From: Botryllus schlosseri
Lineage: Eukaryota
NCBI GenBank assembly: GCA_051294905.1
Contig: CM119372.1
Span: forward strand, 10,914,001-10,978,000
DNA: 64,000 bases
Direction: 5' to 3'
The translations under genes and the position numbers were made by a program. The notes below the pieces were generated by a model. That model saw nothing but the letters and a program-made list of their open reading frames with translations. It made no database searches and was not told the DNA's origin. Positions 4,645 to 64,000 of the stretch are shown here, piece after piece (position 1 is the first letter of the stretch; each line of letters starts with the position of its first letter).

Positions 4645-4672
4645 ATAGTTATCTCTGCGACGAAGATAAAGC

Positions 4673-5470: not shown

Positions 5471-5568
5471 AATCCTGCAGCCGCTGTTTCATCGATCACC
5501 AGAGAAAAGACTGTCAATATCGACATTCAGTATGTCAAAAATGTGGTCGTAAAGGTCATATCAAACCT

Positions 5569-30351: not shown

Positions 30352-30555
30352 GTCGGCAATGGCGGCATTGTCGGCATTGGCGACGTTGGTGACATTGGCG
30401 ACGTTGGTGACATTGGCGACATTGGTGACATAGCCGACATTGGTGACATTGGCGACATTGGTGACATTGGTGACATTGGCGACATTGACAAAATAGATAC
30501 ACGTCGACATTGGCGACATTGGTGACATTGGTGACATTGGCGACATTGGCGACAT
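30352..30555. repeat. 9-bp minisatellite (GACATTGGY)n within a dispersed repeat
   Basis: About 20 units; shorter inverted homolog with the same flanks at about 27775-27970. Confidence 0.85.
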
Positions 30556-32486: not shown

Positions 32487-32782
32487 TTATGGTGCAGCAC
32501 ACTGCGAAGATTGACAGGCGCACTGAGTGGCGACTTTGTAAGTGTGCTTCTTGGTGGATCCATCAGGGCATGTCAAGTTGGCAGTCTTGGTTACTGTTTC
32601 GATGGCGGTACAGCAAGTGCACTGTTTCTGGAATGATCCAGTTTCAGACGAGAAGATCGATCCACTAGTACAGCTTCCATGGCACATGGTCATTTCGATT
32701 GGTTCTGTAGATTTACATCCCTCAAATTCGATGTGTTCGCTGAAGTCGACAGTTGGAGCACAACCGTTTGATGATTTTGTTT
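32487..32782 (-). CDS. Terminal exon: C-terminal cystine knot
   Basis: GC...GCKSTEPIEMTMCHGSC...CTCC...LTCPDGS...CAC, then TAA. Confidence 0.92.
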
Positions 32783-35700
32783 CTAAAATAAACTCGGCTT
32801 CAGTTCACTGAACAAGAAAATTTTTCTGAAGTGACATACCGGTTGCACATTTCTGACAGCAACCATCAGACACTATGTCGGTGCACGAAGGATCGATCTC
32901 TGGACAAGATGGAGCGAAACACTCGGTATAAACTTCATTCGTGTGTGGATCAGTCATACACTCGCAAGTCTTGCAAGAGTCACCTTCAAAAACAGAGATA
33001 AGATCATATAAATGAATTGTGAGTAATGTCAGGCATGAGAAAAATTATGATTCTTTGAAACCACACCAAGACGAGATCAGAAAACAGAAGGGCTGGTAAA
33101 ATTCTGTAATCTATATAGGGTAATGTTATCACGGAAACCAGATGAACTGGCTAGAGTCATATCCTTGGGCTCTAATTTAGTCTTTTAATGTCTCCTAACA
33201 TACTTTGCGTCTTGATTGCATCGAACTCACCATCAGGAGACCAAGTCTGTCCGACAGCGTATTGTTTAGAGCTGTGATGACAAACATTTGGCACGCAGTC
33301 TCCACAACACTGTCCAGCAACCGGAACATAAGTGTATCCTGAGCTGCATGTTCCGCATTTAGTAATGGTGCAAGTTGACTCGTATTCTCCCAAAGAGTTA
33401 GGAATGTCGCTGCAGGAGCATTCGTTGCAAACATCTTCCATCCATACGGATCCTGAAAGTAATTAAAATGTTAATTTTACTAATTCGCTCAAGTAGTGGA
33501 TATCTATTCAGACGAGCATAACACCAGTTGGGTACTGCAAAATACCCAAAGGATGCCATCTATATACACTTGTATCTACGAATTGCAAGATTATAGCATC
33601 AATTCTTATTAAACACATAATAGTGTTATACAATAGTTCATGAATCTCTTGTTAAACCAATATCTTTCGCTTTAATTGAAAATTAGATACAACTTGAAAA
33701 TGACGGTTATGCCGGAGATTTCTGAATGCTACATATAAATTTCACGCAATTAATGCCTAGCAGGCGCATCGTAATCGTTTTACTCGAAGTGTTGCTTGTT
33801 GTTATTTTAACAGCGATTCCGCTATGTGATTGTTGGTGGGGCTTTTTATTCATCTGCTAAATGTAAGTCCGTTCATGCCTACCTGGTGCATGTGCAACAC
33901 TGTCAAGGTAGCACATTGGTTCTGGTTCGCATACTCTGTCGACGCATCCACATTCATCTTTGGAATCGGTAGCCTTGTATCCTTCTTTGCATGGTTGTGG
34001 TTCTTTACATTCATTGCATACGCACATGGAAGTTGTGCAGCATTCGTTCACCACATTTTCAGCAAGATGTTTATTGGAAGGACAGGACATTTCTCCGGTT
34101 TCACATGATGCTGACAAAGAACATATAATTACATAATGCGCCGATGTAGATTGATACTATTTGGAACGGATGTTCCACATCCACACGATCGAGCAGTAGA
34201 TATCACCCGTATGCGATGGCAAAGGTTTTAAAACTGATATATTCATCTTGAAATTTAATCGCCTGCAGGTGCTATACGTCTGATAGTAATATGTCAACTG
34301 TACAAAAGTAGGGCAACGTATAAATGTTTTACTCACCATAGTCGCATTCACACTCGTATTCGGGACAGCATCCGTCAGGATTAGTTCTGTGTACTCGTTG
34401 ATAAGATGCGCATTTAGGCATTGCAAGAGAGCAGCTGCTAATATCACAGATACAAGATTCTTCTGCTTGAGTTGGGCAGCACTCCAGTTGACCAGGAGCA
34501 CGCACTTTTTCCTCTGTTTTGAGAAGTCTTTACAAGACAAATACAGAAAATTTAAAGAAAGCTATGACTTAAATGAATAATGTCATGGTTAAATACCTGA
34601 ATCCTGGTGTGGTTGGACAGTAGGTAGTGCTAACAGCCGGACATTGCACAGGATCGCACAGACATTCGTAAACTTCGCAGCAGTCATTCGCGGAGCTTGT
34701 TTTAACTCGTTTGTAACCGCTACCGCAGTCTTGTACGACTGGCGCGCATCTGTCTGGCACGCATCTGCACTCGTAAATTGGACAGCAGCTGCCCGCATTG
34801 GTTACTTCGGCAATTTCACCGCCAGAGCAAGTTGGAATGCCGCTATCTGCGCAAGTAGATCTGTCGCAGACGCATTCGTAAACGACGCAACATCTGCCCG
34901 ATTCAACTGCAGACAGCACATATCCTGCGGAGCACAGTGGTACGTAATAGGCGGGGCACGAGTCTGGTTTGCAGACGCAAGTTGCGGTTGGGCAGCATCC
35001 GTCTGAGTTAACAATCACGAGTTCTTCTCCTTCCTCACAAGTCTGAACGTTAAATAAAAATATTTAGGCATGTTTTGATATCTGGTCATTTGGGAGTGTC
35101 GTGATTGATAAGCGACAGGTTTCATGATATGGTGGAGAACTGAGGAACAGAGAACATTACTCTGATTGTCAACCACAAGAGGAATGCAAGAGGAGTGATA
35201 TTAAGCCGACGATATTTCATTCGCTACCAGGCTATATATCACCCAATAAGGATAGCCATGATGGCATTGCGGGATGTGGCTAATATAGCACGATACCATG
35301 ACAATATTTAATTCTCCGCAAATATATTCACTTCTGCTCCAGTTTTTGTCAGACTTCTATCAAAATATGAGTTCAAAGTCATTTCTCGCCGAGATGAACG
35401 TATTATACATCATTATACACCCTCAATAGCACAGCCAATAAGTCACCAGCTTTAGTCACTGCGATACATGCAATTCATCATGTGCGTAGTATACTTACGG
35501 TGTGAGAGACATCAACGCATGTAGCAGTGTTGCATTCGCATGTGTAAGTCATACAACATCCGCCGGATCCACTTGCGGTTGCAACCAATGTTTCCCCAAC
35601 TTCCAAGCATACTGGTCGAACGACCTCTGGACAAGTCACAGAAGAGCATCTAGTCTCGTGGTCGTCGGGCACGCATTTGTAGATTGCGCAGCATTCTTCC

Positions 35701-38700
35701 TCGTCGGTAACAGTGACGAGTTGCTGTGAAAAATTGACGGCTATATCAAATCCTTTGACGGACATAAGACTTTTACTTACTTCTCCCTCCTCGCATTCCG
35801 GTGCTTCGGGGCAACATACTTGACCTTGGACAACATGTCCATCCGGTTGGCAAGTTGCGACCAGACAAGGATCAGCTTCGACACGCCATTGCTCTCCGAC
35901 CTTTCTTCCAATGTAGGACTCATCCAGACATACTGGACACTCGGATGCATCGACACATTTTCCATCAACGACAACCTGCAATGTTTAGTGCACGCATTAT
36001 TCTCTGCTGACACTGCTATCATAACTACAGTTTAATTGCAAAGAAATATAAATGTAAACCTGACTAACCTTGTCGTCACCACAGAAGCATCCCTCGCTAT
36101 TGAAGGCCACAGAGACACCGTTGTAAGTTTTGAAGTTTTCACAAGTCCTGGCAACATCTGGTCCGCACGCAGAATATGCAGCGCCCTCAACTTCGCATGT
36201 CGAGTACGCGCACAGTCTGGCACTTCTCCATTGTTGGCAAGTACCCGATTTGCTGCATTCAGTCGCATATGCGGCGAGAGCAGAACAGCCCGGCCAGCTC
36301 AAAGCGATTGTTTCTCCGTCAGCAGGCACGTCACAGCCCGCTGTAACTCTAGCACAAGTGTCCAAATACTCAGACGTGTCAACATCACAGCTTGAGAATG
36401 TTTGTCTGAAGATCTAAGAGAGATTCGTAAATTGTGCGCATTGCTCACGGAATGTTGAAAAGTGCATCAATATTTACCTTATTGCAGAAGTCTCTTGATT
36501 CCACGAGAGAGTCGTCGACACCCACCAAAGTATCGGTGAAGCATTCATCTCTTGGGTTCACCAACCAGTGATTGAAGAAGGTCTCGACAGAATCAGATTT
36601 CGAAATCGCCAGGCAATATCCTCCCATCCACAAGTCGTTTGCGGAATCAGCATCGGCCATACCGCAGAGACCCTCCGTCTTACCAGAGAATTTAGCTGGT
36701 ACCGTTATCTCCCAAACATCAGCACTGTTGTCATATTCAAACACGACACCGAGCTTCTTGAATGCAATCGATACTTTCGACGACACTCGGCTGATATCGA
36801 ACGCATTTCTGTTTCCATATAACTGTACATAAAATATTATGATTGTGATTTGCTTCATTGAAAACTGCTGTAATCATTCTACCTCCATATTGCTGCCCAA
36901 AGTGAGTACGCTTGACGACAATTTGTTATTTAAGTTGAAGGAGTCGGTGCAAATGCTGCCTGCATTGCCCGAGCAGTATTTTCTGTTCACAGAAATTTCG
37001 AAGTCCAGTCCGAATATATCTCTTGCTAAGACGTGCGTACACGGGCAAGATCTCGAGAAGCCAGTACCATCAAATGTGCTAATTCGAGCGCTGGCAGAGT
37101 ATCCGGTGCAAGTAACTAGAAAGGAATTTAGCATTATAACAAAATTTACGGTCGTCATTTCACGGAAAATCTGTAAACAATGGATCTCATTCTATGCCGT
37201 CTTCTTCGTGGGGTATCGGTGTGTTTACAAAACCATCTCCAATTGATATAATAAACAGGATATGCTTTTCAAACAATTTCAACCATGTATATTTTTAATA
37301 ATTTCAGCAACCAATTTGATCACTTGAAAACATTGCAAGGTGCGTTACTATGAAATGATAGGATCGGGTCGAGATGAGCAAAGAAGTCCATAGAATCAAC
37401 ACAGTCCTCCTCCGATTGTCTCTTTGTAAAATATATTCAATATATATCACAGATAACACTGATTGTAAGGACCTAAGCTTGTTGGATCTTGATTGCATGT
37501 GAAAAGAGCCTTTAATAAACTATCCGTCTCTTTCAAAAGGGGGTGGATCAAAAATTGCATGCTGGAAGGACCATCGACCAATGTCTCAAACATATTAGAT
37601 ACACTCACAGTCGCATACGTAAGAAGCGCAGCAGCCATTGACATCAAAGACAGCAGTTGGTTCTTTTCCATCTTGGCAAGTGTGAGTTGTTCTCGCGGCA
37701 CACTGTTTGGCTGAGCATATCTGGTTTTGATCTGATTTACATTCGCAAATCAAGCACGAGTCAGTAGCGTGCTCCCAACTGTCTCCAATGTTATGGAATG
37801 TTCCAGATTCGTCAGTGCATCCAAGTTCTGTCGAGTGAAACATTTATAGAACTGGATTCTGGCATATCAATGTGAAAAGTGAGATTAATCCACCGATGTA
37901 TACATCGGAAATATCTCAAAATTTTTGATACGTGGAAATCACAATAACTTACTTTGACAAGTATACACTGTGCAGCATTCTGAACATTCGGTGCTGACAA
38001 GTTTCTCTCCTGCGCCACATGTGACTGGGAGTGGGCATTTCTCTTTTTTACAGACTGAAAAGTACACATTTATTATATGATGAATTTGAATTGTACCCGT
38101 TTATATTCTAGAGTCTAGACAGTAGGCCTGTAGTCAAACATACATCTACATAGCAACTACGACTACCCGGTAACCCAGGCATTATGCAGAGACCGAACCT
38201 GAGCATAAGTACAATACAGTACTACTGATTTTACAAATTCCGATAGAAAAATGCTACATTGGTAGCAATGTAATATCAATATGATAGCTCATATTTACAA
38301 GTTATTGATACCTACAACAATATATCATCAATGCAACGTTAAAAAATAATATAAAGGCGAATACATACCACACTCATAGGTTGGACAGCATTCATCTGGA
38401 TTGGTGGCCACCACTTCTTCGTATTCATGTTCACAAGTTGGCGGTTCGGAGGCACATGATGACTTATCACACACTGAAAACACAACCAATTGGTGTTCAA
38501 TGTTCCCTGCCCTTAGAACCATGGTGACAAAAATCTCCATAGCTCGGCAATATCCAATGTACACTGTACAGTGTAGGCTATAATGGCTTATATTTGTGGA
38601 ATGAGGTTTGCAAGAATGACTGATACAACAATTAGAACACCTCCAAGAAGCTGTTCAATTAGAAAACATATATGATTGAGTACTGCCCTTCTGGGGGTTC

Positions 38701-41700
38701 TCTCCAAATATCAACCTTGCGCTTATCCTAACTGGTTCAGATCTCACATTGATGAAAAATGAAGGTTTGCAAATCGCAATAATTTTGAATTTTGTGGTGC
38801 ATTAGGAGTTCAAAGTTACATGAGAGGTTGAAAATCACATATGTAGACAATGTATGCAACTGTTCATCGGTGATCAGTTTTCAATTGGTACAGCTTGTCA
38901 GGATGGAGTATTCCCAATATAGCTATTATTAGGGCTAATAACACAATTTTAAATTAGACTAAAGACAAACACACATACCACATTCGTAAGATGAGCAGCA
39001 CGTATCAGCTTTCTGAACAAGCATTTCATTGTCGCCACAAGATGGCACTTCCTGGGCAGCACATTCCATTTCTTGACATTGGGATCCCTGAGATGTGCAT
39101 GTGCATTCCTCACAGGTGTCCTCACATACCCATGTTTCACCGAACTGTGATTTATAGAGAGTTACAACAAGATAATGTGACCATTTTATTTCTGCTCGTT
39201 CGTAATATTTAATTAGAGATTACGGAATAGTAGAACCCTTTCAAGGGGAAATTTGATCAAAAATTGTACTCAACATTTACCTCACGGCCTACGCTATTGG
39301 AGTCAATGCAATCTCGAGCCGGCTCACAAACAGGGCAGCAGGAACCAACAGGATAAGAGAGACTTTCTCCAGTCGGGCACTCATTCACTTCGCAAATTTC
39401 AGCAGTGCACTTGACTTCACCGCCAATACAAATGCAATTTTCGCATCCTGCATTTTCTCTCCACACAGACCCGGTCTAAAAATATAAATATTTGAAAGTA
39501 TTGCAAAATACAAGATATGAAGAGAACTTACAGATCGCCTGACTCCATCCCTGATACATGGGCAATCTTGAGCAAACACGCAAGTGTAGCCATCAAAGTA
39601 CTTATCTGCTGGACACTGAGAGTCAGGAATGATTGTAACCCCTGGGCAGATGCCTTCTGATCCAACAACAGCAGTGGCTTTGGCAGCATTCGAAGCCAAA
39701 AGCATATATTTTCCAGTTGCCAAAGAAATATAATCTGAGCCTCTTCCAGATTTGGATGTATCAATGCCAATATCAACAGCTGAATCGACGCCTGCATCGG
39801 CAGAAACATCTTGATCCGATTTGATATTTACGTCAGTATTCATATGTCCATGCGGTCCTGATCCAAACTCGAATTTGAACATAGAATCTCCGAGTAGAAT
39901 AGAAGCCCCAGAAAAGCTATTGGCATGTGCTAATGCTCCACCGCCTCTGACACATTTCTTGACAGGACAGCATGAATGATCATCTACTACCATGCGTTTG
40001 TATTTCGGTGGGCATTGAGCATCACCAAAGGAAGGACATTTGGTAGGATTGCATAAGCACTCATAAGATGCGCAGCAGGAGTCTTTTGACACATGATTGA
40101 GATCCTCGAAGTATTCACACACAGGTGCGGAATGTTCGCATTGCTCTGGATCACAGTCGCTCTTCACTACTCTATGAATGTAGCAACAATCATCAGCCTT
40201 TTCAGATATAACTTTATATCCGATGGGCGCGGATGGATAAGGATCACATTCCTGTTTTTGATTTCTGAAAATAGGAAGGTAATATGTAAAAAAAAGGTAG
40301 GACTGATGAAAATATTATGATGTTAAACTTACTTGATTTCATTTGATTCAGTACATGCAGATACAATACATGGATCCCCATTGCAATACCAGGTTTCTCC
40401 GAAGCTGCGTTCTCTTCCAGTTTCATCTACACATACACTTTGTCCAATTTCGATGGAAATATCATTGTCAAGAGAAACATCAGCTTCAGCTTGGACATTG
40501 TTATCAACGGAAATTGCCACATCAACACCATGGTCGCCAGAATGATCACCGTCCATATTGACGCCGAGTCCCATTGGGCCCATGCCGAATTGGAATCCGT
40601 TGTTTGCGTTGGCGTCTGCAATAGCATCACCGCTTCCGTAGTGAGGTCCTCCGGTTGCGATTGATTTAGCAGCCGCTTTGTTTCCGAGGTTAAGGTTAAT
40701 TCCGCCCATACCCATGTTTGCGAAGAGGTCGCCGTATTGTCCTTTGCCTCCGTCGGTGGTGACATCAACTGCAAGATCGCTATCGACGTGTGCGTCAGCG
40801 ATGGCGAGAGTGTTGTCTGCTACATCGACTTCGACGCCGTGACCGCCAGAATGATCACCGTCCACATTGACGCCGAGTCCCATTGGGCCCATGGCGAATT
40901 GGAATCCGTTGTTTGCGTTGGCGTGTGCAATAGCATCACCGCTTCCGTAGTGAGGTCCTCCGGTTGCGATTGCTTTAGCAGCGGCGTTGTTTCCGAAGTT
41001 AAGGTTAATTCCGCCCATACCCATGTTTGCGAAGAGGTCGCCGTATTGTCCTTTGCCTCCGTCGGTGGTGACATCAACTGCAAGATCGCTATCGACGTGT
41101 GCGTCAGCGATGGCGAGAGTGTTGTCTGCTACATCGACTTCGACGCCGTGACCGCCAGAATGATCACCGTCCACATTGACGCCGAGTCCCATTGGGCCCA
41201 TGGCGAATTGGAATCCGTTGTTTGCGTTGGCGTGTGCAATAGCATCACCGCTTCCGTAGTGAGGTCCTCCGGTTGCGATTGCTTTAGCAGCGGCGTTGTT
41301 TCCGAAGTTAAGGTTAATTCCGCCCATACCCATGTTTGCGAAGAGGTCGCCGTATTGTCCTTTGCCTCCGTCGGTGGTGACATCAACTGCAAGATCGCTA
41401 TCGACGTGTGCGTCAGCGATGGCGAGAGTGTTGTCTGCTACATCGACTTCGACGCCGTGATCGCCTGAATGATCACCGTCCACATTGACGCCGAGTCCCA
41501 TTGGGCCCATGGCGAATTGGAATCCGTTGTTTGCGTTGGCGTGTGCAATAGCATCACCGCTTCCGTAGTGAGGTCCTCCGGTTGCGATTGCTTTAGCAGC
41601 GGCGTTGTTTCCGAAGTTAAGGTTAATTCCGCCCATACCCATGTTTGCGAAGAGGTCGCCGTATTGTCCTTTGCCTCCGTCGGTGGTGACATCAACTGCA

Positions 41701-44700
41701 AGATCGCTATCGACGTGTGCGTCAGCGATGGCGAGAGTGTTGTCTGCTACATCGACTTCGACGCCGTGACCGCCAGAATGATCACCGTCCACATTGACGC
41801 CGAGTCCCATTGGGCCCATGGCGAATTGGAATCCGTTGTTTGCGTTGGCGTGTGCAATAGCATCACCGCTTCCGTAGTGAGGTCCTCCGGTTGCGATTGC
41901 TTTAGCAGCGGCGTTGTTTCCGAAGTTAAGGTTAATTCCGCCCATACCCATGTTTGCGAAGAGGTCGCCGTATTGTCCTTTGCCTCCTTCGGTGGTGACA
42001 TCAACTGCAAGATCGCTATCGACGTGTGCGTCAGCGATGGCGAGAGTGTTGTCTGCTACATCGACTTCGACGCCGTGACCGCCAGAATGATCACCGTCCA
42101 CATTGACGCCGAGTCCCATTGGGCCCATGGCGAATTGGAATCCGTTGTTTGCGTTGGCGTGTGCAATAGCATCACCGCTTCCGTAGTGAGGTCCTCCGGT
42201 TGCGATTGCTTTAGCAGCGGCGTTGTTTCCGAAGTTAAGGTTAATTCCGCCCATACCCATGTTTGCGAAGAGGTCGCCGTATTGTCCTTTGCCTCCGTCG
42301 GTGGTGACATCAACTGCAAGATCGCTATCGACGTGTGCGTCAGCGATGGCGAGAGTGTTGTCTGCTACATCGACTTCGACGCCGTGACCGCCAGAATGAT
42401 CACCGTCCACATTGACGCCGAGTCCCATTGGGCCCATGGCGAATTGGAATCCGTTGTTTGCGTTGGCGTGTGCAATAGCATCACCGCTTCCGTAGTGAGG
42501 TCCTCCGGTTGCGATTGCTTTAGCAGCGGCGTTGTTTCCGAAGTTAAGGTGAATTCCGCCCATACCCATGTTTGCGAAGAGGTCGCCGTATTGTCCTTTG
42601 CCTCCGTCGGTGGTGACATCAACTGCAAGATCGCTATCGACGTGTGCGTCAGCGATGGCGAGAGTGTTGTCTGCTACATCGACTTCGACGCCGTGACCGC
42701 CAGAATGATCACCGTCCACATTGACGCCGAGTCCCATTGGGCCCATGGCGAATTGGAATCCGTTGTTTGCGTTGGCGTGTGCAATAGCATCACCGCTTCC
42801 GTAGTGAGGTCCTCCGGTTGCGATTGCTTTAGCAGCGGCGTTGTTTCCGAAGTTAAGGTTAATTCCGCCCATACCCATGTTTGCGAAGAGGTCGCCGTAT
42901 TGTCCTTTGCCTCCGTCGGTGGTGACATCAACTGCAAGATCGCTATCGACGTGTGCGTCAGCGATGGCGAGAGTGTTGTCTGCTACATCGACTTCGACGC
43001 CGTGACCGCCAGAATGATCACCGTCCACATTGACGCCGAGTCCCATTGGGCCCATGGCGAATTGGAATCCGTTGTTTGCGTTGGCGTGTGCAATAGCATC
43101 ACCGCTTCCGTAGTGAGGTCTTCCTGTTGCGATTGCTTTAGCAGCGGCGTTGTTTCCGAAGTTAAGGTTAATTCCGCCCATACCCATGTTTGCGAAGAGG
43201 TCGCCGTATTGTCCTTTGCCTCCGTCGGTGGTGACATCAACTGCAAGATCGCTATCGACGTGTGCGTCAGCGATGGCGAGAGTGTTGTCTGCTACATCGA
43301 CTTCGACGCCGTGATCGCCAGAATGATCACCGTCCACATTGACGCCGAGTCCCATTGGGCCCATGGCGAATTGGAATCCGTTGTTTGCGTTGGCGTGTGC
43401 AATAGCATCACCGCTTCCGTAGTGAGGTCCTCCGGTTGCGATTGCTTTAGCAGCGGCGTTGTTTCCGAAGTTAAGGTTAATTCCGCCCATACCCATGTTT
43501 GCGAAGAGGTCGCCGTATTGTCCTTTGCCTCCGTCGGTGGTGACATCAACTGCAAGATCGCTATCGACGTGTGCGTCAGCGATGGCGAGAGTGTTGTCTG
43601 CTACATCGACTTCGACGCCGTGACCGCCAGAATGATCACCGTCCACATTGACGCCGAGTCCCATTGGGCCCATGGCGAATTGGAATCCGTTGTTTGCGTT
43701 GGCGTGTGCAATAGCATCACCGCTTCCGTAGTGAGGTCCTCCGGTTGCGATTGCTTTAGCAGCGGCGTTGTTTCCGAAGTTAAGGTTAATTCCGCCCATA
43801 CCCATGTTTGCGAAGAGGTCGCCGTATTGTCCTTTGCCTCCGTCGGTGGTGACATCAACTGCAAGATCGCTATCGACGTGTGCGTCAGCGATGGCGAGAG
43901 TGTTGTCTGCTACATCGACTTCGACGCCGTGATCGCCTGAATGATCACCGTCCACATTGACGCCGAGTCCCATTGGGCCCATGGCGAATTGGAATCCGTT
44001 GTTTGCGTTGGCGTGTGCAATAGCATCACCGCTTCCGTAGTGAGGTCCTCCGGTTGCGATTGCTTTAGCAGCGGCGTTGTTTCCGAAGTTAAGGTTAATT
44101 CCGCCCATACCCATGTTTGCGAAGAGGTCGCCGTATTGTCCTTTGCCTCCGTCGGCGGTGACATCAACTGCAAGATCGCTATCGACGTGTGCGTCAGCGA
44201 TGGCGAGAGTGTTGTCTGCTACATCGACTTCGACGCCGTGACCGCCAGAATGATCACCGTCCACATTGACGCCGAGTCCCATTGGGCCCATGGCGAATTG
44301 GAATCCGTTGTTTGCGTTGGCGTGTGCAATAGCATCACCGCTTCCGTAGTGAGGTCCTCCGGTTGCGATTGCTTTAGCAGCGGCGTTGTTTCCGAAGTTA
44401 AGGTTAATTCCGCCCATACCCATGTTTGCGAAGAGGTCGCCGTATTGTCCTTTGCCTCCGTCGGTGGTGACATCAACTGCAAGATCACTATCGACGTGTG
44501 CGTCAGCGATGGCGAGAGTGTTGTCTGCTACATCGACTTCGACGCCGTGACCGCCAGAATGATCACCGTCCACATTGACGCCGAGTCCCATTGGGCCCAT
44601 GGCGAATTGGAATCCGTTGTTTGCGTTGGCGTGTGCAATAGCATCACCGCTTCCGTAGTGAGGTCCTCCGGTTGCGATTGCTTTAGCAGCGGCGTTGTTT

Positions 44701-53700: not shown

Positions 53701-56700
53701 AAGAGGTCGCCGTATTGTCCTTTGCCTCCGTCGGTGGTGACATCAACTGCAAGATCGCTATCGACGTGTGCGTCAGCGATGGCGAGAGTGTTGTCTGCTA
53801 CATCGACTTCGACGCCGTGACCGCCAGAATGATCACCGTCCACATTGACGCCGAGTCCCATTGGGCCCATGGCGAATTGGAATCCGTTGTTTGCGTTGGC
53901 GTGTGCAATAGCATCACCGCTTCCGTAGTGAGGTCCTCCGGTTGCGATTGCTTTAGCAGCGGCGTTGTTTCCGAAGTTAAGGTTAATTCCGCCCATACCC
54001 ATGTTTGCGAAGAGGTCGCCGTATTGTCCTTTGCCTCCGTCGGTGGTGACATCAACTGCAAGATCGCTATCGACGTGTGCGTCAGCGATGGCGAGAGTGT
54101 TGTCTGCTACATCGACTTCGACGCCGTGACCGCCAGAATGATCACCGTCCACATTGACGCCGAGTCCCATTGGGCCCATGGCGAATTGGAATCCATTGTT
54201 TGCGCTGGCGTGTGCAATAGCATCACCGCTTCCGTAGTGAGGTCCTCCGGTTGCGATTGCTTTAGCAGCGGCGTTGTTTCCGAAGTTAAGGTTAATTCCG
54301 CCCATACCCATGTTTGCGAAGAGGTCGCCGTATTGTCCTTTGCCTCCGTCGGTGGTGACATCAACTGCAAGATCGCTATCGACGTGTGCGTCAGCGATGG
54401 CGAGAGTGTTGTCTGCTACATCGACTTCGACGCCGTGACCGCCAGAATGATCACCGTCCACATTGACGCCGAGTCCCATTGGGCCCATGGCGAATTGGAA
54501 TCCGTTGTTTGCGCTGGCGTGTGCAATAGCATCACCGCTTCCGTAGTGAGGTCCTCCGGTTGCGATTGCTTTAGCAGCGGCGTTGTTTCCGAAGTTAAGG
54601 TTAATTCCGCCCATACCCATGTTTGCGAAGAGGTCGCCGTATTGTCCTTTGCCTCCGTCGGTGGTGACATCAACTGCAAGATCGCTATCGACGTGTGCGT
54701 CAGCGATGGCGAGAGTGTTGTCTGCTACATCGACTTCGACGCCGTGACCGCCAGAATGATCACCGTCCACATTGACGCCGAGTCCCATTGGGCCCATGGC
54801 GAATTGGAATCCGTTGTTTGCGTTGGCGTGTGCAATAGCATCACCGCTTCCGTAGTGAGGTCCTCCGGTTGCGATTGCTTTAGCAGCGGCGTTGTTTCCG
54901 AAGTTAAGGTTAATTCCGCCCATACCCATGTTTGCGAAGAGGTCGCCGTATTGTCCTTTGCCTCCGTCGGTGGTGACATCAACTGCAAGATCGCTATCGA
55001 CGTGTGCGTCAGCGATGGCGAGAGTGTTGTCTGCTACATCGACTTCGACGCCGTGACCGCCAGAATGATCACCGTCCACATTGACGCCGAGTCCCATTGG
55101 GCCCATGGCGAATTGGAATCTGTTGTTTGCGTTGGCGTGTGCAATAGCATCACCGCTTCCGTAGTGAGGTCCTCCGGTTGCGATTGCTTTAGCAGCGGCG
55201 TTGTTTCCGAAGTTAAGGTTAATTCCGCCCATACCCATGTTTGCGAAGAGGTCGCCGTATTGTCCTTTGCCTCCGTCGGTGGTGACATCAACTGCAAGAT
55301 CGCTATCGACGTGTGCGTCAGCGATGGCGAGAGTGTTGTCTGCTACATCGACTTCGACGCCGTGATCGCCTGAATGATCACCGTCCACATTGACGCCGAG
55401 TCCCATTGGGCCCATGGCGAATTGGAATCCGTTGTTTGCGTTGGCGTGTGCAATAGCATCACCGCTTCCGTAGTGAGGTCCTCCGGTTGCGATTGCTTTA
55501 GCAGCGGCGTTGTTTCCGAAGTTAAGGTTAATTCCGCCCATACCCATGTTTGCGAAGAGGTCGCCGTATTGTCCTTTGCCTCCGTCGGTGGTGACATCAA
55601 CTGCAAGATCGCTATCGACGTGTGCGTCAGCGATGGCGAGAGTGTTGTCTGCTACATCGACTTCGACGCCGTGACCGCCAGAATGATCACCGTCCACATT
55701 GACGCCGAGTCCCATTGGGCCCATGGCGAATTGGAATCCGTTGTTTGCGTTGGCGTGTGCAATAGCATCACCGCTTCCGTAGTGAGGTCCTCCGGTTGCG
55801 ATTGCTTTAGCAGCGGCGTTGTTTCCGAAGTTAAGGTTAATTCCGCCCATACCCATGTTTGCGAAGAGGTCGCCGTATTGTCCTTTGCCTCCGTCGGTGG
55901 TGACATCAACTGCAAGATCGCTATCGACGTGTGCGTCAGCGATGGCGAGAGTGTTGTCTGCTACATCGACTTCGACGCCGTGACCGCCAGAATGATCACC
56001 GTCCACATTGACGCCGAGTCCCATTGGGCCCATGGCGAATTGGAATCCGTTGTTTGCGTTGGCGTGTGCAATAGCATCACCGCTTCCGTAGTGAGGTCCT
56101 CCGGTTGCGATTGCTTTAGCAGCGGCGTTGTTTCCGAAGTTAAGGTTAATTCCGCCCATACCCATGTTTGCGAAGAGGTCGCCGTATTGTCCTTTGCCTC
56201 CGTCGGTGGTGACATCAACTGCAAGATCGCTATCGACGTGTGCGTCAGCGATGGCGAGAGTGTTGTCTGCTACATCGACTTCGACGCCGTGACCGCCAGA
56301 ATGATCACCGTCCACATTGACGCCGAGTCCCATTGGGCCCATGGCGAATTGGAATCCGTTGTTTGCGTTGGCGTGTGCAATAGCATCACCGCTTCCGTAG
56401 TGAGGTCCTCCGGTTGCGATTGCTTTAGCAGCGGCGTTGTTTCCGAAGTTAAGGTTAATTCCGCCCATACCCATGTTTGCGAAGAGGTCGCCGTGTTGTC
56501 CTTTGCCTCCGTCGGTGGTGACATCAACTGCAAGATCGCTATCGACGTGTGCGTCAGCGATGGCGAGAGTGTTGTCTGCTACATCGACTTCGACGCCGTG
56601 ACCGCCAGAATGATCACCGTCCACATTGACGCCGAGCCCCATTGGGCCCATGGCGAATTGGAATCCGTTGTTTGCGTTGGCGTGTGCAATAGCATCACCG

Positions 56701-59700
56701 CTTCCGTAGTGAGGTCCTCCGGTTGCGATTGCTTTAGCAGCGGCGTTGTTTCCGAAGTTAAGGTTAATTCCGCCCATACCCATGTTTGCGAAGAGGTCGC
56801 CGTATTGTCCTTTGCCTCCGTCGGTGGTGACATCAACTGCAAGATCGCTATCGACGTGTGCGTCAGCGATGGCGAGAGTGTTGTCTGCTACATCGACTTC
56901 GACGCCGTGACCGCCAGAATGATCACCGTCCACATTGACGCCGAGTCCCATTGGGCCCATGGCGAATTGGAATCCGTTGTTTGCGTTGGCGTGTGCAATA
57001 GCATCACCGCTTCCGTAGTGAGGTCCTCCGGTTGCGATTGCTTTAGCAGCGGCGTTGTTTCCGAAGTTAAGGTTAATTCCGCCCATACCCATGTTTGCGA
57101 AGAGGTCGCCGTATTGTCCTTTGCCTCCGTCGGTGGTGACATCAACTGCAAGATCGCTATCGACGTGTGCGTCAGCGATGGCGAGAGTGTTGTCTGCTAC
57201 ATCGACTTCGACGCCGTGACCGCCAGAATGATCACCGTCCACATTGACGCCGAGTCCCATTGGGCCCATGGCGAATTGGAATCCGTTGTTTGCGTTGGCG
57301 TGTGCAATAGCATCACCGCTTCCGTAGTGAGGTCCTCCGGTTGCGATTGCTTTAGCAGCGGCGTTGTTTCCGAAGTTAAGGTTAATTCCGCCCATACCCA
57401 TGTTTGCGAAGAGGTCGCCGTATTGTCCTTTGCCTCCGTCGGTGGTGACATCAACTGCAAGATCGCTATCGACGTGTGCGTCAGCGATGGCGAGAGTGTT
57501 GTCTGCTACATCGACTTCGACGCCGTGACCGCCAGAATGATCACCGTCCACATTGACGCCGAGTCCCATTGGGCCCATGGCGAATTGGAATCCGTCGTTT
57601 GCGTTGGCGTGTGCAATAGCATCACCGCTTCCGTAGTGAGGTCCTCCGGTTGCGATTGCTTTAGCAGCGGCGTTGTTTCCGAAGTTAAGGTTAATTCCGC
57701 CCATACCCATGTTTGCGAAGAGGTCGCCGTATTGTCCTTTGCCTCCGTCGGTGGTGACATCAACTGCAAGATCGCTATCGACGTGTGCGTCAGCGATGGC
57801 GAGAGTGTTGTCTGCTACATCGACTTCGACGCCGTGACCGCCAGAATGATCACCGTCCACATTGACGCCGAGTCCCATTGGGCCCATGGCGAATTGGAAT
57901 CCGTTGTTTGCGTTGGCGTGTGCAATAGCATCACCGCTTCCGTAGTGAGGTCCTCCGGTTGCGATTGCTTTAGCAGCGGCGTTGTTTCCGAAGTTAAGGT
58001 TAATTCCGCCCATACCCATGTTTGCGAAGAGGTCGCCGTATTGTCCTTTGCCTCCGTCGGTGGTGACATCAACTGCAAGATCGCTATCGACGTGTGCGTC
58101 AGCGATGGCGAGAGTGTTGTCTGCTACATCGACTTCGACGCCGTGACCGCCAGAATGATCACCGTCCACATTGACGCCGAGTCCCATTGGGCCCATGGCG
58201 AATTGGAATCCGTTGTTTGCGTTGGCGTGTGCAATAGCATCACCGCTTCCGTAGTGAGGTCCTCCGGTTGCGATTGCTTTAGCAGCGGCGTTGTTACCGA
58301 AGTTAAGGTGAATTCCGCCCATACCCATGTTTGCGAAGAGGTCGCCGTATTGTCCTTTGCCTCCGTCGGTGGTGACATCAACTGCAAGATCGCTATCGAC
58401 GTGTGCGTCAGCGATGGCGAGAGTGTTGTCTGCTACATCGACTTCGACGCCGTGACCGCCAGAATGATCACCGTCCACATTGACGCCGAGTCCCATTGGG
58501 CCCATGGCGAATTGGAATCCGTTGTTTGCGTTGGCGTGTGCAATAGCATCACCGCTTCCGTAGTGAGGTCCTCCGGTTGCGATTGCTTTAGCAGCGGCGT
58601 TGTTTCCGAAGTTAAGGTTAATTCCGCCCATACCCATGTTTGCGAAGAGGTCGCCGTATTGTCCTTTGCCTCCGTCGGTGGTGACATCAACTGCAAGATC
58701 GCTATCGACGTGTGCGTCAGCGATGGCGAGAGTGTTGTCTGCTACATCGACTTCGACGCCGTGACCGCCAGAATGATCACCGTCCACATTGACGCCGAGT
58801 CCCATTGGGCCCATGGCGAATTGGAATCCGTTGTTTGCGCTGGCGTGTGCAATAGCATCACCGCTTCCGTAGTGAGGTCCTCCGGTTGCGATTGCTTTAG
58901 CAGCGGCGTTGTTTCCGAAGTTAAGGTTAATTCCGCCCATACCCATGTTTGCGAAGAGGTCGCCGTATTGTCCTTTGCCTCCGTCGGTGGTGACATCAAC
59001 TGCAAGATCGCTATCGACGTGTGCGTCAGCGATGGCGAGAGTGTTGTCTGCTACATCGACTTCGACGCCGTGACCGCCAGAATGATCACCGTCCACATTG
59101 ACGCCGAGTCCCATTGGGCCCATGGCGAATTGGAATCCGTTGTTTGCGCTGGCGTGTGCAATAGCATCACCGCTTCCGTAGTGAGGTCCTCCGGTTGCGA
59201 TTGCTTTAGCAGCGGCGTTGTTTCCGAAGTTAAGGTTAATTCCGCCCATACCCATGTTTGCGAAGAGGTCGCCGTATTGTCCTTTGCCTCCGTCGGTGGT
59301 GACATCAACTGCAAGATCGCTATCGACGTGTGCGTCAGCGATGGCGAGAGTGTTGTCTGCTACATCGACTTCGACGCCGTGACCGCCAGAATGATCACCG
59401 TCCACATTGACGCCGAGTCCCATTGGGCCCATGGCGAATTGGAATCCGTTGTTTGCGTTGGCGTGTGCAATAGCATCACCGCTTCCGTAGTGAGGTCCTC
59501 CGGTTGCGATTGCTTTAGCAGCGGCGTTGTTTCCGAAGTTAAGGTTAATTCCGCCCATACCCATGTTTGCGAAGAGGTCGCCGTATTGTCCTTTGCCTCC
59601 GTCGGTGGTGACATCAACTGCAAGATCGCTATCGACGTGTGCGTCAGCGATGGCGAGAGTGTTGTCTGCTACATCGACTTCGACGCCGTGACCGCCAGAA

Positions 59701-62700
59701 TGATCACCGTCCACATTGACGCCGAGTCCCATTGGGCCCATGGCGAATTGGAATCCGTTGTTTGCGTTGGCGTGTGCAATAGCATCACCGCTTCCGTAGT
59801 GAGGTCCTCCGGTTGCGATTGCTTTAGCAGCGGCGTTGGAAGCGGTGATGCTATTGCACACGCCAACGCAAACAACGGATTCCAATTCGCCATGGGCCCA
59901 ATGGGACTCGGCGTCAATGTGGACGGTGATCATTCTGGCGGTCACGGCGTCGAAGTCGATGGCGAGAGTGTTGTCTGCTACATCGACTTCGACGCCGTGA
60001 TCGCCTGAATGATCACCGTCCACATTGACGCCGAGTCCCATTGGGCCCATGGCGAATTGGAATCCGTTGTTTGCGTTGGCGTGTGCAATAGCATCACCGC
60101 TTCCGTAGTGAGGTCCTCCGGTTGCGATTGCTTTAGCAGCGGCGTTGTTTCCGAAGTTAAGGTTAATTCCGCCCATACCCATGTTTGCGAAGAGGTCGCC
60201 GTATTGTCCTTTGCCTCCGTCGGTGGTGACATCAACTGCAAGATCGCTATCGACGTGTGCGTCAGCGATGGCGAGAGTGTTGTCTGCTACATCGACTTCG
60301 ACGCCGTGACCGCCAGAATGATCACCGTCCACATTGACGCCGAGTCCCATTGGGCCCATGGCGAATTGGAATCCGTTGTTTGCGTTGGCGTGTGCAATAG
60401 CATCACCGCTTCCGTAGTGAGGTCCTCCGGTTGCGATTGCTTTAGCAGCGGCGTTGTTTCCGAAGTTAAGGTTAATTCCGCCCATACCCATGTTTGCGAA
60501 GAGGTCGCCGTATTGTCCTTTGCCTCCGTCGGTGGTGACATCAACTGCAAGATCGCTATCGACGTGTGCGTCAGCGATGGCGAGAGTGTTGTCTGCTACA
60601 TCGACTTCGACGCCGTGACCGCCAGAATGATCACCGTCCACATTGACGCCGAGTCCCATTGGGCCCATGGCGAATTGGAATCCGTTGTTTGCGTTGGCGT
60701 GTGCAATAGCATCACCGCTTCCGTAGTGAGGTCCTCCGGTTGCGATTGCTTTAGCAGCGGCGTTGTTTCCGAAGTTAAGGTTAATTCCGCCCATACCCAT
60801 GTTTGCGAAGAGGTCGCCGTATTGTCCTTTGCCTCCGTCGGTGGTGACATCAACTGCAAGATCGCTATCGACGTGTGCGTCAGCGATGGCGAGAGTGTTG
60901 TCTGCTACATCGACTTCGACGCCGTGACCGCCAGAATGATCACCGTCCACATTGACGCCGAGTCCCATTGGGCCCATGGCGAATTGGAATCCGTTGTTTG
61001 CGTTGGCGTGTGCAATAGCATCACCGCTTCCGTAGTGAGGTCCTCCGGTTGCGATTGCTTTAGCAGCGGCGTTGTTTCCGAAGTTAAGGTTAATTCCGCC
61101 CATACCCATGTTTGCGAAGAGGTCGCCGTGTTGTCCTTTGCCTCCGTCGGTGGTGACATCAACTGCAAGATCGCTATCGACGTGTGCGTCAGCGATGGCG
61201 AGAGTGTTGTCTGCTACATCGACTTCGACGCCGTGACCGCCAGAATGATCACCGTCCACATTGACGCCGAGTCCCATTGGGCCCATGGCGAATTGGAATC
61301 CGTTGTTTGCGTTGGCGTGTGCAATAGCATCACCGCTTCCGTAGTGAGGTCCTCCGGTTGCGATTGCTTTAGCAGCGGCGTTGTTTCCGAAGTTAAGGTT
61401 AATTCCGCCCATACCCATGCTTGCGAAGAGGTCGCCGTATTGTCCTTTGCCTCCGTCGGTGGTGACATCAACTGCAAGATCGCTATCGACGTGTGCGTCA
61501 GCGATGGCGAGAGTGTTGTCTGCTACATCGACTTCGACGCCGTGACCGCCAGAATGATCACCGTCCACATTGACGCCGAGTCCCATTGGGCCCATGGCGA
61601 ATTGGAATCCGTTGTTTGCGTTGGCGTGTGCAATAGCATCACCGCTTCCGTAGTGAGGTCCTCCGGTTGCGATTGCTTTAGCAGCGGCGTTGTTTCCGAA
61701 GTTAAGGTTAATTCCGCCCATACCCATGTTTGCGAAGAGGTCGCCGTATTGTCCTTTGCCTCCGTCGGTGGTGACATCAACTGCAAGATCGCTATCGACG
61801 TGTGCGTCAGCGATGGCGAGAGTGTTGTCTGCTACATCGACTTCGACGCCGTGACCGCCAGAATGATCACCGTCCACATTGACGCCGAGTCCCATTGGGC
61901 CCATGGCGAATTGGAATCCGTTGTTTGCGTTGGCGTGTGCAATAGCATCACCGCTTCCGTAGTGAGGTCCTCCGGTTGCGATTGCTTTAGCAGCGGCGTT
62001 GTTTCCGAAGTTAAGGTTCATTCCGCCCATACCCATGTTTGCGAAGAGGTCGCCGTATTGTCCTTTGCCTCCGTCGGTGGTGACATCAACTGCAAGATCG
62101 CTATCGACGTGTGCGTCAGCGATGGCGAGAGTGTTGTCTGCTACATCGACTTCGACGCCGTGACCGCCAGAATGATCACCGTCCACATTGACGCCGAGTC
62201 CCATTGGGCCCATGGCGAATTGGAATCCGTTGTTTGCGTTGGCGTGTGCAATAGCATCACCGCTTCCGTAGTGAGGTCCTCCGGTTGCGATTGCTTTAGC
62301 AGCGGCGTTGTTTCCGAAGTTAAGGTTAATTCCGCCCATACCCATGTTTGCGAAGAGGTCGCCGTATTGTCCTTTGCCTCCGTCGGTGGTGACATCAACT
62401 GCAAGATCGCTATCGACGTGTGCGTCAGCGATGGCGAGAGTGTTGTCTGCTACATCGACTTCGACGCCGTGATCGCCTGAATGATCACCGTCCACATTGA
62501 CGCCGAGTCCCATTGGGCCCATGGCGAATTGGAATCCGTTGTTTGCGTTGGCGTGTGCAATAGCATCACCGCTTCCGTAGTGAGGTCCTCCGGTTGCGAT
62601 TGCTTTAGCAGCGGCGTTGTTTCCGAAGTTAAGGTTAATTCCGCCCATACCCATGTTTGCGAAGAGGTCGCCGTATTGTCCTTTGCCTCCGTCGGTGGTG

Positions 62701-64000
62701 ACATCAACTGCAAGATCGCTATCGACGTGTGCGTCAGCGATGGCGAGAGTGTTGTCTGCTACATCGACTTCGACGCCGTGACCGCCAGAATGATCACCGT
62801 CCACATTGACGCCGAGTCCCATTGGGCCCATGGCGAATTGGAATCCGTTGTTTGCGTTGGCGTGTGCAATAGCATCACCGCTTCCGTAGTGAGGTCCTCC
62901 GGTTGCGATTGCTTTAGCAGCGGCGTTGTTTCCGAAGTTAAGGTTAATTCCGCCCATACCCATGTTTGCGAAGAGGTCGCCGTATTGTCCTTTGCCTCCG
63001 TCGGTGGTGACATCAACTGCAAGATCGCTATCGACGTGTGCGTCAGCGATGGCGAGAGTGTTGTCTGCTACATCGACTTCGACGCCGTGACCGCCAGAAT
63101 GATCACCGTCCACATTGACGCCGAGTCCCATTGGGCCCATGGCGAATTGGAATCCGTTGTTTGCGTTGGCGTGTGCAATAGCATCACCGCTTCCGTAGTG
63201 AGGTCCTCCGGTTGCGATTGCTTTAGCAGCGGCGTTGTTTCCGAAGTTAAGGTTAATTCCGCCCATACCCATGTTTGCGAAGAGGTCGCCGTATTGTCCT
63301 TTGCCTCCGTCGGTGGTGACATCAACTGCAAGATCGCTATCGACGTGTGCGTCAGCGATGGCGAGAGTGTTGTCTGCTACATCGACTTCGACGCCGTGAC
63401 CGCCAGAATGATCACCGTCCACATTGACGCCGAGTCCCATTGGGCCCATGGCGAATTGGAATCCGTTGTTTGCGTTGGCGTGTGCAATAGCATCACCGCT
63501 TCCGTAGTGAGGTCCTCCGGTTGCGATTGCTTTAGCAGCGGCGTTGTTTCCGAAGTTAAGGTTAATTCCGCCCATACCCATGTTTGCGAAGAGGTCGCCG
63601 TATTGTCCTTTGCCTCCGTCGGTGGTGACATCAACTGCAAGATCGCTATCGACGTGTGCGTCAGCGATGGCGAGAGTGTTGTCTGCTACATCGACTTCGA
63701 CGCCGTGACCGCCAGAATGATCACCGTCCACATTGACGCCGAGTCCCATTGGGCCCATGGCGAATTGGAATCTGTTGTTTGCGTTGGCGTGTGCAATAGC
63801 ATCACCGCTTCCGTAGTGAGGTCCTCCGGTTGCGATTGCTTTAGCAGCGGCGTTGTTTCCGAAGTTAAGGTTAATTCCGCCCATACCCATGTTTGCGAAG
63901 AGGTCGCCGTATTGTCCTTTGCCTCCGTCGGTGGTGACATCAACTGCAAGATCGCTATCGACGTGTGCGTCAGCGATGGCGAGAGTGTTGTCTGCTACAT
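32487..64000 (-). CDS. Giant vWF/gel-forming-mucin-architecture protein (5' end outside window), over 9,300 aa visible
   Basis: Giant repeat exon (from beyond 64000 to 40333) spliced in frame to 17 GT-AG exons with consistent phases: 40171-39532, 39475-39281, 39144-38979, 38473-38369, 38054-37953, 37827-37609, 37115-36883, 36822-36478, 36413-36069, 35975-35781, 35723-35499, 35042-34597, 34527-34337, 34110-33883, 33452-33231, 32983-32840, 32782-32487. Confidence 0.88.
32840..35975 (-). CDS. Seven exons encoding tandem vWC-like Cys-rich modules
   Basis: Repeated C..C...CCPxYECxC units; GEQW, GSVW and GQTW vWC starts. Confidence 0.85.
36069..37115 (-). CDS. Three exons encoding vWD-C8-TIL
   Basis: CTGYS...ISTFDG...CPCTHVLA; VPAKFSGKTEGLCG...NDL; CSALAAYATEC...WRSARLC; YSACGP...TC...EGCFC. 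Confidence 0.88.
37609..39475 (-). CDS. Five exons encoding vWC-like modules
   Basis: GSVWRENAGCENCICIGGEVKC, GETWVCEDTCEECTC, GDSWEHATDSCLICEC, repeated CCPxYEC. Confidence 0.85.
39532..40171 (-). CDS. Exon: Cys-rich modules, one diverged repeat unit and a TIL-like tail
   Basis: CDPEQC...CCASYECLCNPTKCP...CCPVKKC, then ALAHANSF...SNAAKATA, then CPADKYFDGYTCVFAQDCPC. Confidence 0.85.
40333..64000 (-). CDS. Giant coding exon (at least 23,668 nt) of 103-aa repeats ending in a vWC-like start
   Basis: Stop-free 7853-aa ORF; ends CVDETGRERSFGETWYCNGDPCIVSAC...EIK at donor AA|GTAAGT; phase 2 matches the acceptor at 40171. Confidence 0.88.
40510..64000. repeat. Coding tandem array, 309-bp unit, about 76 copies
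   Basis: Exact 309-bp periodicity in sequence and ORF track; interior units differ by only 0-2 substitutions, except the rearranged unit near 59840. Confidence 0.98.

Follow-up and report, generated by a model that had tools for sequence, protein, structure and literature searches.

The minus strand of a 64,000-nucleotide stretch of the Botryllus schlosseri genome (assembly GCA_051294905.1, contig CM119372.1, here called C2, positions 10,914,001-10,978,000; "the window" below means this whole stretch) carries the 3' part of what we read as a real, expressed, single-copy sea-squirt gene of a tunicate-restricted von Willebrand factor (vWF)-like family, the product of which would most likely be a filament of the mucus net made by the endostyle; we put the probability of this reading at roughly 0.55. 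The assembly comprises 495.5 Mb in 219 contigs. With 140 kb of upstream sequence added to the window, 204 kb were examined in all, and coordinates that run on past 64,000 are given as window-extended. Within the window, the gene appears as an open reading frame at 40329..63998 (7,889 codons, stop at 40329) whose 5' side lies beyond the window edge; in the rebuilt stretch, and by genome search, the full frame holds 35,815 sense codons (window-extended 147776 to 40332) with no stop, and the gene feature is ~4.5 times larger than its in-window portion. The original prediction, made from the window, had described an exon of at least 23.6 kb with about 76 repeats; the 7,889-codon frame and its 75.9 array copies agree with this, and the feature extends far beyond. 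The giant exon measures 107,393 bases, from an acceptor (TTACAG/CCT) at window-extended 147725 to 40333, i.e., 35,797 codons plus two bases. It opens with a short TIL/E-like lead-in; next, a diverged repeat segment of ~170 residues (1.65 units) and a cysteine module alternate four times; there follows an unbroken array at residues 1311-35781 (34,471 residues, or 334.7 units), the 5' limit of which lies at ~C2:11,057,846, beyond the window. The cysteine modules are 138-141 residues long (~139), consist of a VWC part followed by a Cys-rich half, and contain 20-24 Cys each; all five matches found in a search of the 495-Mb genome fall within the giant gene, with no copy elsewhere. The features of the giant exon that lie in the window are as follows (P0001 is a Ciona relative introduced below).

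40434..64000, minus strand: in-window part of the repeat array, 76.3 units of 309 bp/103 aa (open reading frame, Tandem Repeats Finder, translation)
59835..59957, minus strand: 123-nt in-frame inverted piece inside unit 270 of 333, reading as 41 unrelated residues including 2 Cys
40333..40433, minus strand: 3' end of the giant exon, covering the VWC-like first half of cysteine module 5, with donor GTAAGT at 40332-40327; aligns with residues 3313-3357 of Ciona P0001

In Tandem Repeats Finder, the repeat forms a single array from 40535 to 64000 (period 309, 75.9 copies, 98% matches, 0% indels), over which the GC content rises from ~0.41 to ~0.55. Successive copies of an anchor motif lie exactly 103 residues apart in 325 of 329 intervals and 206 residues apart in the remaining 4; because the spacing is always 103 or 206, there are zero indels across the array. 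When 333 units were cut in register, they fell into 101 protein variants and 145 nucleotide variants. Two main unit types, differing at 14 of 309 bases, occupy the 5' and the 3' part of the array, respectively, with an ordered gradient between the two sub-arrays; units are 92-100% identical and form higher-order blocks, and the longest stretch of consecutive identical units is 10 (3.1 kb). The inverted piece matches the unit consensus at 114 of 123 bases when reverse-complemented and at 44 of 123 in forward orientation, and the rest of the array is free of Cys; a genuine inversion, somatic or in the germline, could explain it, as could an assembly error. A genome search with the repeat found a sole other copy, 4.2 Mb away on the same chromosome (C2:15,150,419-15,153,838, with the repeat at 1426-2352, plus strand): ~3 degenerate units with indels, without cysteine modules or an obvious gene nearby, i.e., a dispersed array fragment.

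Counted by hand on the translation, the unit in the window contains G20 A16 D11 N10 V8 H5, with 9 Pro, Thr or Ser among its 103 residues and no C, W or R, the very composition given by the original prediction. Over the whole array, S+T+P amounts to 8.8%, which upholds the further claim that the core is no Pro/Thr/Ser-rich (PTS) mucin domain, and there are 0 N-X-S/T sequons. The array is strongly acidic (isoelectric point 4.27; D+E 3,930; K+R 698; H 1,680), with a net charge of about -3,200 per chain.

No curated family contains the unit, in line with the original prediction, which did not recognize the repeat family. A three-unit query has no match in PDB by sequence, 0 by profile, and no usable match in the ESM Atlas; Pfam returns only a sub-threshold DUF3181 on the repeat; and an exhaustive phmmer search of three units against 1.84 billion representative proteins gave 0 matches at E 0.001. 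This last blank is no proof of absence, because the relatives P0001-P0011 sit in the parent collection with a repeat that is only ~25% identical. They were found only through the cysteine modules, not through the repeat. A 1,067-aa query from the module region retrieved a Ciona intestinalis protein of 4,887 aa at 38% identity (XP_078495661.1, "uncharacterized protein LOC445660"; P0001) together with two unnamed proteins of ~2,000 aa, and a four-sequence profile collected 11 family members (P0001-P0011), among which LOC445660 is the sole named one; the next match is mammalian vWF (E 8e-28). The LOC445660-type layout, that is, 139-residue cysteine modules alternating with ~103-residue Gly/Ala-rich units and followed by D4 through to the cystine knot, is found in the Botryllus gene, collinear with Ciona.

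With an iterated unit profile, a ~103-residue module was detected in eight of the 11 family proteins at 2-22 copies each (22 in Ciona P0001, 8-14 in P0002-P0006 and P0008, and 2 in P0007) and went undetected in P0009-P0011. Each module consists of a 78-residue core with alternating small/hydrophobic positions and a ~25-residue linker. A search of the repeat profile among longer proteins had only P0007 among the matches listed. P0002-P0006 are single-exon equivalents of the giant exon, with the same end point inside cysteine module 5, and hold 2.6-4.6 units between cysteine modules 4 and 5, out of 9-14 in the whole protein, versus ~335 at this position in the B. schlosseri gene. Judged by these sequences, the array is a hyper-expansion specific to one lineage within a tunicate family of von Willebrand-like genes, because the ~103-residue module is conserved in eight proteins of the same layout with only 2-22 copies. 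Across the 1,067-aa module region, Pfam gave no match to Mucin2_WxxW (CysD) with an E cut-off of 0.1; it gave none to VWA in the 41 pieces scanned, and none to TSP1/LDLa, AbfB, MAM or FCGBP_N in the pieces of the gene. The protein is no mucin in the strict sense, since it has neither a PTS domain nor CysD, and it is not vWF, since it has no A domains. SCO-spondin, otogelin, zonadhesin and FCGBP were considered and rejected, their own extra domains being absent and the VWD assemblies numbering only four; an RTX or beta-roll reading was dropped with no HemolysinCabind match in the Pfam scan.

On the 5' side of the giant exon, in the same orientation, Pfam detects VWD-C8-TIL, VWD-C8-TIL, TIL and VWD-C8-TIL at C2:11,063,071-11,073,724. 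These D1-D2-D'-D3 assemblies, the N-terminal vWD assemblies anticipated by the original prediction, are separated from the giant exon by 1.5-12 kb and align in order with residues 35-1215 of mammalian vWF (minus-strand matches above coordinate 147000 only). A GLCG-type motif is present in each VWD of D1, D2, D3 and D4, and there are four VWD assemblies in all. The last upstream TIL-like exon ends in phase 0 at a GTGAGT donor, and the model of the Ciona protein joins it to the giant exon likewise; on splice signals and Ciona homology, this 5' junction lies at window-extended 149239/147725 (C2:11,063,239/11,061,725). With at least ~1,200 residues before and ~1,500 after the giant exon, as estimated from the alignments, the protein would come to ~38,500 residues in total and its whole unglycosylated chain to ~3.8 MDa. 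The earlier figure of ~1 MDa per chain was thus too low, the product of the giant exon alone having 35,798 residues and a mass of 3.52 MDa. Before D1, at least three Sushi/CCP-like exons can be made out on the minus strand (window-extended 163215-163490 and 159759-161013, i.e., C2:11,077,215-11,077,490 and C2:11,073,759-11,075,013), with no Pfam match at E 0.001; their membership of the gene is presumed. Five Met-plus-hydrophobic candidates for a signal peptide at window-extended 160069-166198 were unconvincing.

Downstream of the giant exon, the exons are collinear with residues 3313-4883 of P0001, with 25-74% identity along the C-terminal exons (tblastn, matches above coordinate 41000 left out). 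In minus-strand pieces below 40329, Pfam places VWC at 39260-39475 (E 4.3e-7) and 33175-33462 (E 1.9e-7), with two weaker VWC matches, VWD at 36877-37191 and 36448-36873, C8 at 36000-36413 and Cys_knot at 32490-32804 (E 5.1e-12). The C-terminal series first proposed (vWC, vWD-C8-TIL, vWC, cystine knot) is thereby recovered in its VWC, VWD, C8 and Cys_knot parts, with no Pfam match for a TIL after the C8; the VWC-VWD-C8-VWC-cystine knot order bears out the assignment to a vWF/mucin polymerization frame. The C-terminal features, in order of translation, are listed here.

40265..40332, minus strand: predicted 68-nt GT..AG intron (splice sequence; flanks homologous to P0001 and to modules 1-4; no RNA reads)
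39532..40264, minus strand: exon with the rest of cysteine module 5, a ~100-aa diverged repeat segment and the start of the next Cys-rich part (tblastn to P0001 3347-3643, 35%, E 6e-54); 3' boundary set by RNA joint 39475/39532
39281..39475, minus strand: VWC exon (Pfam VWC E 4.3e-7; RNA joints 39475/39532 and 39144/39281)
38981..39144, minus strand: VWC-like exon, lower boundary uncertain (Pfam VWC E 0.0072, below cut-off; joint 39144/39281; P0001 3705-3761)
37953..38474, minus strand: two Cys-rich exons (~38369-38474 and ~37953-38054) with intron 38055-38368 (joints 38054/38369 and 37827/37953; open reading frame pieces)
37598..37827, minus strand: VWC-like exon before D4 (Pfam VWC2L_1st E 4.8e-4, below cut-off; P0001 3831-3909, 44%; joint 37827/37953)
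36448..37191, minus strand: VWD of D4 in two exon pieces, with GLCG motif (Pfam VWD E 6.3e-5 and 3.8e-6; P0001 3906-4071)
36000..36413, minus strand: C8 and next Cys-rich part of D4 (Pfam C8 E 1.5e-7; P0001 4123-4367, 44%, E 2.5e-63)
33882..35984, minus strand: four Cys-rich exons (~35499-35984, 34572-35042, 34332-34529, 33882-34156) with no Pfam match, collinear with the Ciona C-domain region (joints 35042/35499 and 33451/33882)
33228..33451, minus strand: VWC exon (Pfam VWC E 1.9e-7; P0001 4661-4733, 74%; joints 33451/33882 and 32979/33227)
32841..32979, minus strand: VWC-like exon (Pfam VWC E 0.0018, below cut-off; joints 32979/33227 and 32782/32840)
32487..32782, minus strand: last coding exon with cystine knot and stop, the 3' untranslated region running below 32487 (Pfam Cys_knot E 5.1e-12; P0001 4736-4883; top RNA depth of the stretch)

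Expression was followed by aligning raw reads from four RNA runs, labeled as the same species, to 32300-40650, of which run X17 yielded 425 reads and the other three 2, 22 and 32. Eight minus-strand GT..AG joints fall at the exon borders deduced from the sequence (32782/32840, 32979/33227, 33451/33882, 35042/35499, 37827/37953, 38054/38369, 39144/39281 and 39475/39532), and depth declines from ~40 at the 3' end to ~1 at the repeat edge, which fits 3' bias on a very long mRNA. For the exit from the giant exon, the original prediction had named a junction 40333/40171. Its donor stands (AA/GTAAGT after 40333). Two acceptors, 40264 (TTTTCAG/A) and 40171, are both in frame and 31 codons apart; we favor 40264 because it keeps 31 residues that are conserved in Ciona XP_078495661.1 and in modules 1-4, and the exit junction is probably 40333/40264. 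An indexed search of sequencing runs with 38900-40700 listed no RNA run and returned 14 rows sharing 0.07-0.10 of words. It should be noted that X17 also contains a non-canonical TG..CA joint, 38474/38981, in four reads and with one extra letter, which was not used for exon borders, and an A-rich loose end behind 33455 in eight reads; alternative processing, internal priming or allelic differences are possible sources of the two. Moreover, 270 of the 425 X17 reads are only 95-99% identical to the assembly over 32300-40650, with many fixed differences, and the sequenced animals are therefore far removed genetically from the haplotype in the assembly.

The fold of the repeat was approached with AlphaFold2. 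Four units modeled without an alignment gave a mean predicted local distance difference test score (pLDDT) of 39.7; with a 14-row alignment (five paralogous segments of the gene itself and one stretch each of P0001-P0008, P0009-P0011 being excluded for want of a detectable unit), the mean was 35.6, the repeat region stayed below 35, and the VWC start alone reached 85-89. Whole-protein MAFFT alignments scattered the short target across the long relatives, and the folding made no use of them. No confident beta-rich repeat fold emerges from the two AlphaFold2 models to bear out the silk-like or beta-structured core put forward in the original prediction, and neither the sequence nor the profile search of the PDB gave a match. 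The conserved unit length across distant tunicates, the alternating patterns and the native segments of always 1.65 units point, in our reading, to a module that folds or at least forms beta structure, and away from a disordered chain without features.

By analogy with vWF and the gel-forming mucins, the product is most likely a secreted, disulfide-linked polymer of ~3.8-MDa chains. Each chain would begin with Sushi-like modules and D1-D2-D'-D3 and end with VWC modules, D4, further C-type modules and the cystine knot; in its middle, cysteine modules would alternate with Gly/Ala/Asp/Asn-rich ~103-residue segments, the segment between modules 4 and 5 having grown to ~335 units. As in vWF/mucin biology (PMC6109156), the cystine knot would link chains tail to tail into disulfide dimers in the endoplasmic reticulum, and D3 would then link the dimers head to head into multimers in the acidic, Ca-rich secretory pathway. 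Storage could be compact while the ~1,680 histidines are protonated and the ~3,900 carboxylates screened, and release into seawater at pH 8 would let the polymer expand into threads that are very long and thin, bear few glycans and are strongly acidic, the swelling charge coming from Asp side chains in place of mucin glycans. These threads would most likely form the filaments of the mucus net of the pharynx, with the glandular endostyle zones as their source.

Of the materials suggested in the original prediction, the feeding net has the most in its favor, by analogy with related genes. CiVWFL genes are reported as endostyle-specific in Ciona (PMC8462739), VWF genes as marking endostyle zones 2 and 4 in the same genus (PMC13635237), and VWF and Muc5a transcripts as present in endostyle clusters of Botrylloides (PMC12212465); the endostyle-specific gene KY.Chr1.1785 has vWF as its best vertebrate hit (PMC8462739 supplement, which gives mouse and fish best hits only). 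The Botryllus atlas supplements contain no VWF entry. A bolder proposition, which we regard as doubtful, is that the secreted ~38,500-residue, ~3.8-MDa chain is itself a thread of the chordate pharyngeal feeding net in which the ~335 modules act as a length-defining spacer between disulfide nodes; if so, repeat number would help set the sub-micrometer mesh. As a rough estimate, 335 compact modules of ~4 nm give ~1.3 μm per chain, and the smallest ascidian net meshes are reported as 0.2 x 0.5 μm (PMC8790370).

Several points weigh against the endostyle filament as just drawn. The length of the array rests on a single assembly, and 107 kb of 92-100% identical units is of the type in which assembly errors can arise. 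The D1-D3 exons would share a transcript with the giant exon, and no transcript joins them; the signal-peptide exon that the original prediction proposed to look for upstream, alongside the vWD assemblies, was not found there. Three of the four RNA runs show little or no signal, only a handful of reads touch the last repeat, and at the junction out of the giant exon depth is zero at 40112-40390 in all four runs. The runs carry no tissue label, and expression of the gene in the endostyle is a possibility drawn from related genes; the equation of LOC445660 with a CiVWFL gene is a tentative one, drawn from its best vertebrate hit, vWF, as for KY.Chr1.1785; and the pH/Ca switch and the polymerization steps are carried over from vWF/mucin biology.

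Three other explanations have to be set against this reading. Openness alone is little proof that the array is coding, because other frames of the 309-base unit are open too (the plus strand reaches 3,398 codons), as expected for any stop-free 309-bp unit; this, and the degenerate three-unit fragment 4.2 Mb away, could suggest a non-coding satellite, open by chance, in or beside a decaying gene. We consider such a satellite very improbable. The array is in frame with conserved cysteine modules at both ends, the exons that flank it are spliced and expressed, and there are no stops or indels. The two main unit types differ by 6 synonymous and 8 conservative non-synonymous changes, with a ratio of non-synonymous to synonymous polymorphism (pN/pS) of 0.40, and the distinct variant codons include 91 synonymous, 143 non-synonymous and 0 stop changes where mutation alone predicts 3.7-4.7 stops (P 0.009-0.024), the missing stops being modest support for coding. 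The strongest argument is that diverged copies of the unit are kept as protein in other species, in at least eight database proteins. A coding array need not have its assembled length in the animal, and through over-expansion by the assembler, an unstable recent variable-number tandem-repeat allele, or removal of most of it from the mRNA, the protein could be nearer the 2,000-5,000 residues of its relatives. This we hold to be unlikely, though far less so than a satellite: the absence of N bases from the 204 kb, the 145 nucleotide variants among 333 units with a longest identical block (10 units, 3.1 kb) that long accurate reads can span, the ordered gradient between sub-arrays that differ by ~14 of 309 bases, and 103 kb of intact frame free of stops and indels all argue for the long array, against which stand the 2.6-4.6 units of the relatives at that position, the 92-100% identity of units in higher-order blocks, an RNA coverage of the repeat of ~1x or less, and the odd in-frame inversion.

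The alternative that we take most seriously, while still finding it clearly less probable than the endostyle net, leaves the protein as described and has it serve another secretion, in mucus of the gut or of peritrophic type, in the matrix of the tunic, in an adhesive or in the coat of the egg. X17, the run in which expression was seen, comes without a tissue label; Ci-GFM1, built on the same scaffold, is described as a gut-membrane component (PMC6109156); and PMC13635237 calls the orthology of Ciona and Botryllus VWF genes unclear. What tips the balance toward the endostyle is that the profile search ranks vWF as the closest vertebrate protein, just as vWF is the best vertebrate hit of the endostyle-specific KY.Chr1.1785, and that the Pfam scans contain no chitin-binding, PTS or other domain of gut or tunic type.

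The surroundings of the gene contain further repetitive sequence. At window 4670-7955 (plus strand), three consecutive frames match Pfam Retrotrans_gag (weakly), RVT_1, RT_RNaseH and Integrase_H2C2, and on these matches the element is a gypsy-type long terminal repeat retrotransposon whose coding sequence is split over three or more frames. Just past the 3' end of the gene, a tandem repeat of short period (window 30290-30735) is open in all three minus-strand frames. Upstream of the gene, two minus-strand features were recognized by eye: a long gag-protease-reverse transcriptase-RNaseH-integrase-like frame set at C2:11,082,559-11,086,202 and a separate 482-aa reverse-transcriptase-like frame at C2:11,091,281-11,092,726.

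The largest human coding exons measure ~17-22 kb, and to our knowledge a 107-kb exon is several times longer than any described coding exon. Should the array be real, it would set animal records for exon length and for secreted-protein length and would offer a natural experiment in concerted evolution under strict reading-frame constraint. Literature searches, with preprint supplements and Sasaki et al. 2003 outside their scope, gave no description of the central module, its expansion or the protein composition of the net. The original prediction had called the protein possibly undescribed, which holds in so far as its database relatives are uncharacterized and not in so far as 11 proteins of the same layout exist and von Willebrand-like genes have been Ciona endostyle markers since 2003 (PMC8462739, PMC13635237). 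What is remarkable is the size of the protein and the new module family, within a known vWF-like kind held in databases as uncharacterized or unnamed. The proteins of the mucus nets with which tunicates and lancelets filter sub-micrometer particles are undescribed in the literature searched, where von Willebrand-like genes serve only as endostyle markers, and the locus supplies a concrete, easily tested candidate. It would also mean that the vWF/mucin frame can carry a third type of core, a weakly glycosylated Asp/His-rich module as against glycan brushes or A domains, and a giant acidic self-polymerizing thread would be of interest for biomaterials and filtration biomimetics.

Among known systems, Ciona LOC445660 and P0002-P0011 come closest, sharing the TIL-like lead-in, the repeat segments alternating with 139-residue cysteine modules, VWC, D4, C modules and the cystine knot. 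Unlike the Botryllus array, the 22 units of LOC445660 are of two alternating types spread over several arrays, and its model lacks D1-D3; the Botryllus units are, moreover, far richer in Asp, Asn and His than those of these relatives, all of which are uncharacterized. The CiVWFL genes (Sasaki et al. 2003, Zool Sci 20:1025, cited in PMC8462739, PMC12212465 and PMC13635237), which encode tunicate vWF-like secreted proteins with vWF as best vertebrate hit, likely indicate the family and the tissue. The scaffold D1-D2-D'D3...D4-VWC-CK (CK, cystine knot) is reported to take different central modules in vWF, MUC2 and Ci-GFM1 (PMC6109156), and Ciona to have 17 multi-VWD proteins, some with PTS domains (Lang et al., 2016; PMC4948705). 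Human vWF has the same D1-D2-D'-D3 N-terminal part and the same D4, VWC-type C domains and cystine knot at the C-terminus, whereas the Botryllus protein is without the A1-A3 VWA domains, has a 35,000-residue middle of another kind and is ~14 times longer. With MUC2, MUC5AC, MUC5B and Ci-GFM1 it shares the polymerization scaffold, a very large central tandem-repeat exon in concerted evolution and a strong negative charge; unlike them, it has no PTS, no N-glycosylation sequon in the array, no CysD and no chitin-binding domain, and its charge comes from Asp. In size, PKZILLA-1, at 45,212 aa, is reported to be ~25% larger than titin (PMC10862718), and at ~38,500 residues the Botryllus protein would therefore exceed titin and rank among the longest proteins known. 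It would be of the same size class as titin and PKZILLA-1 and, unlike them, a predicted secreted, extracellular protein, built almost entirely of one repeated module and encoded mostly in one exon.

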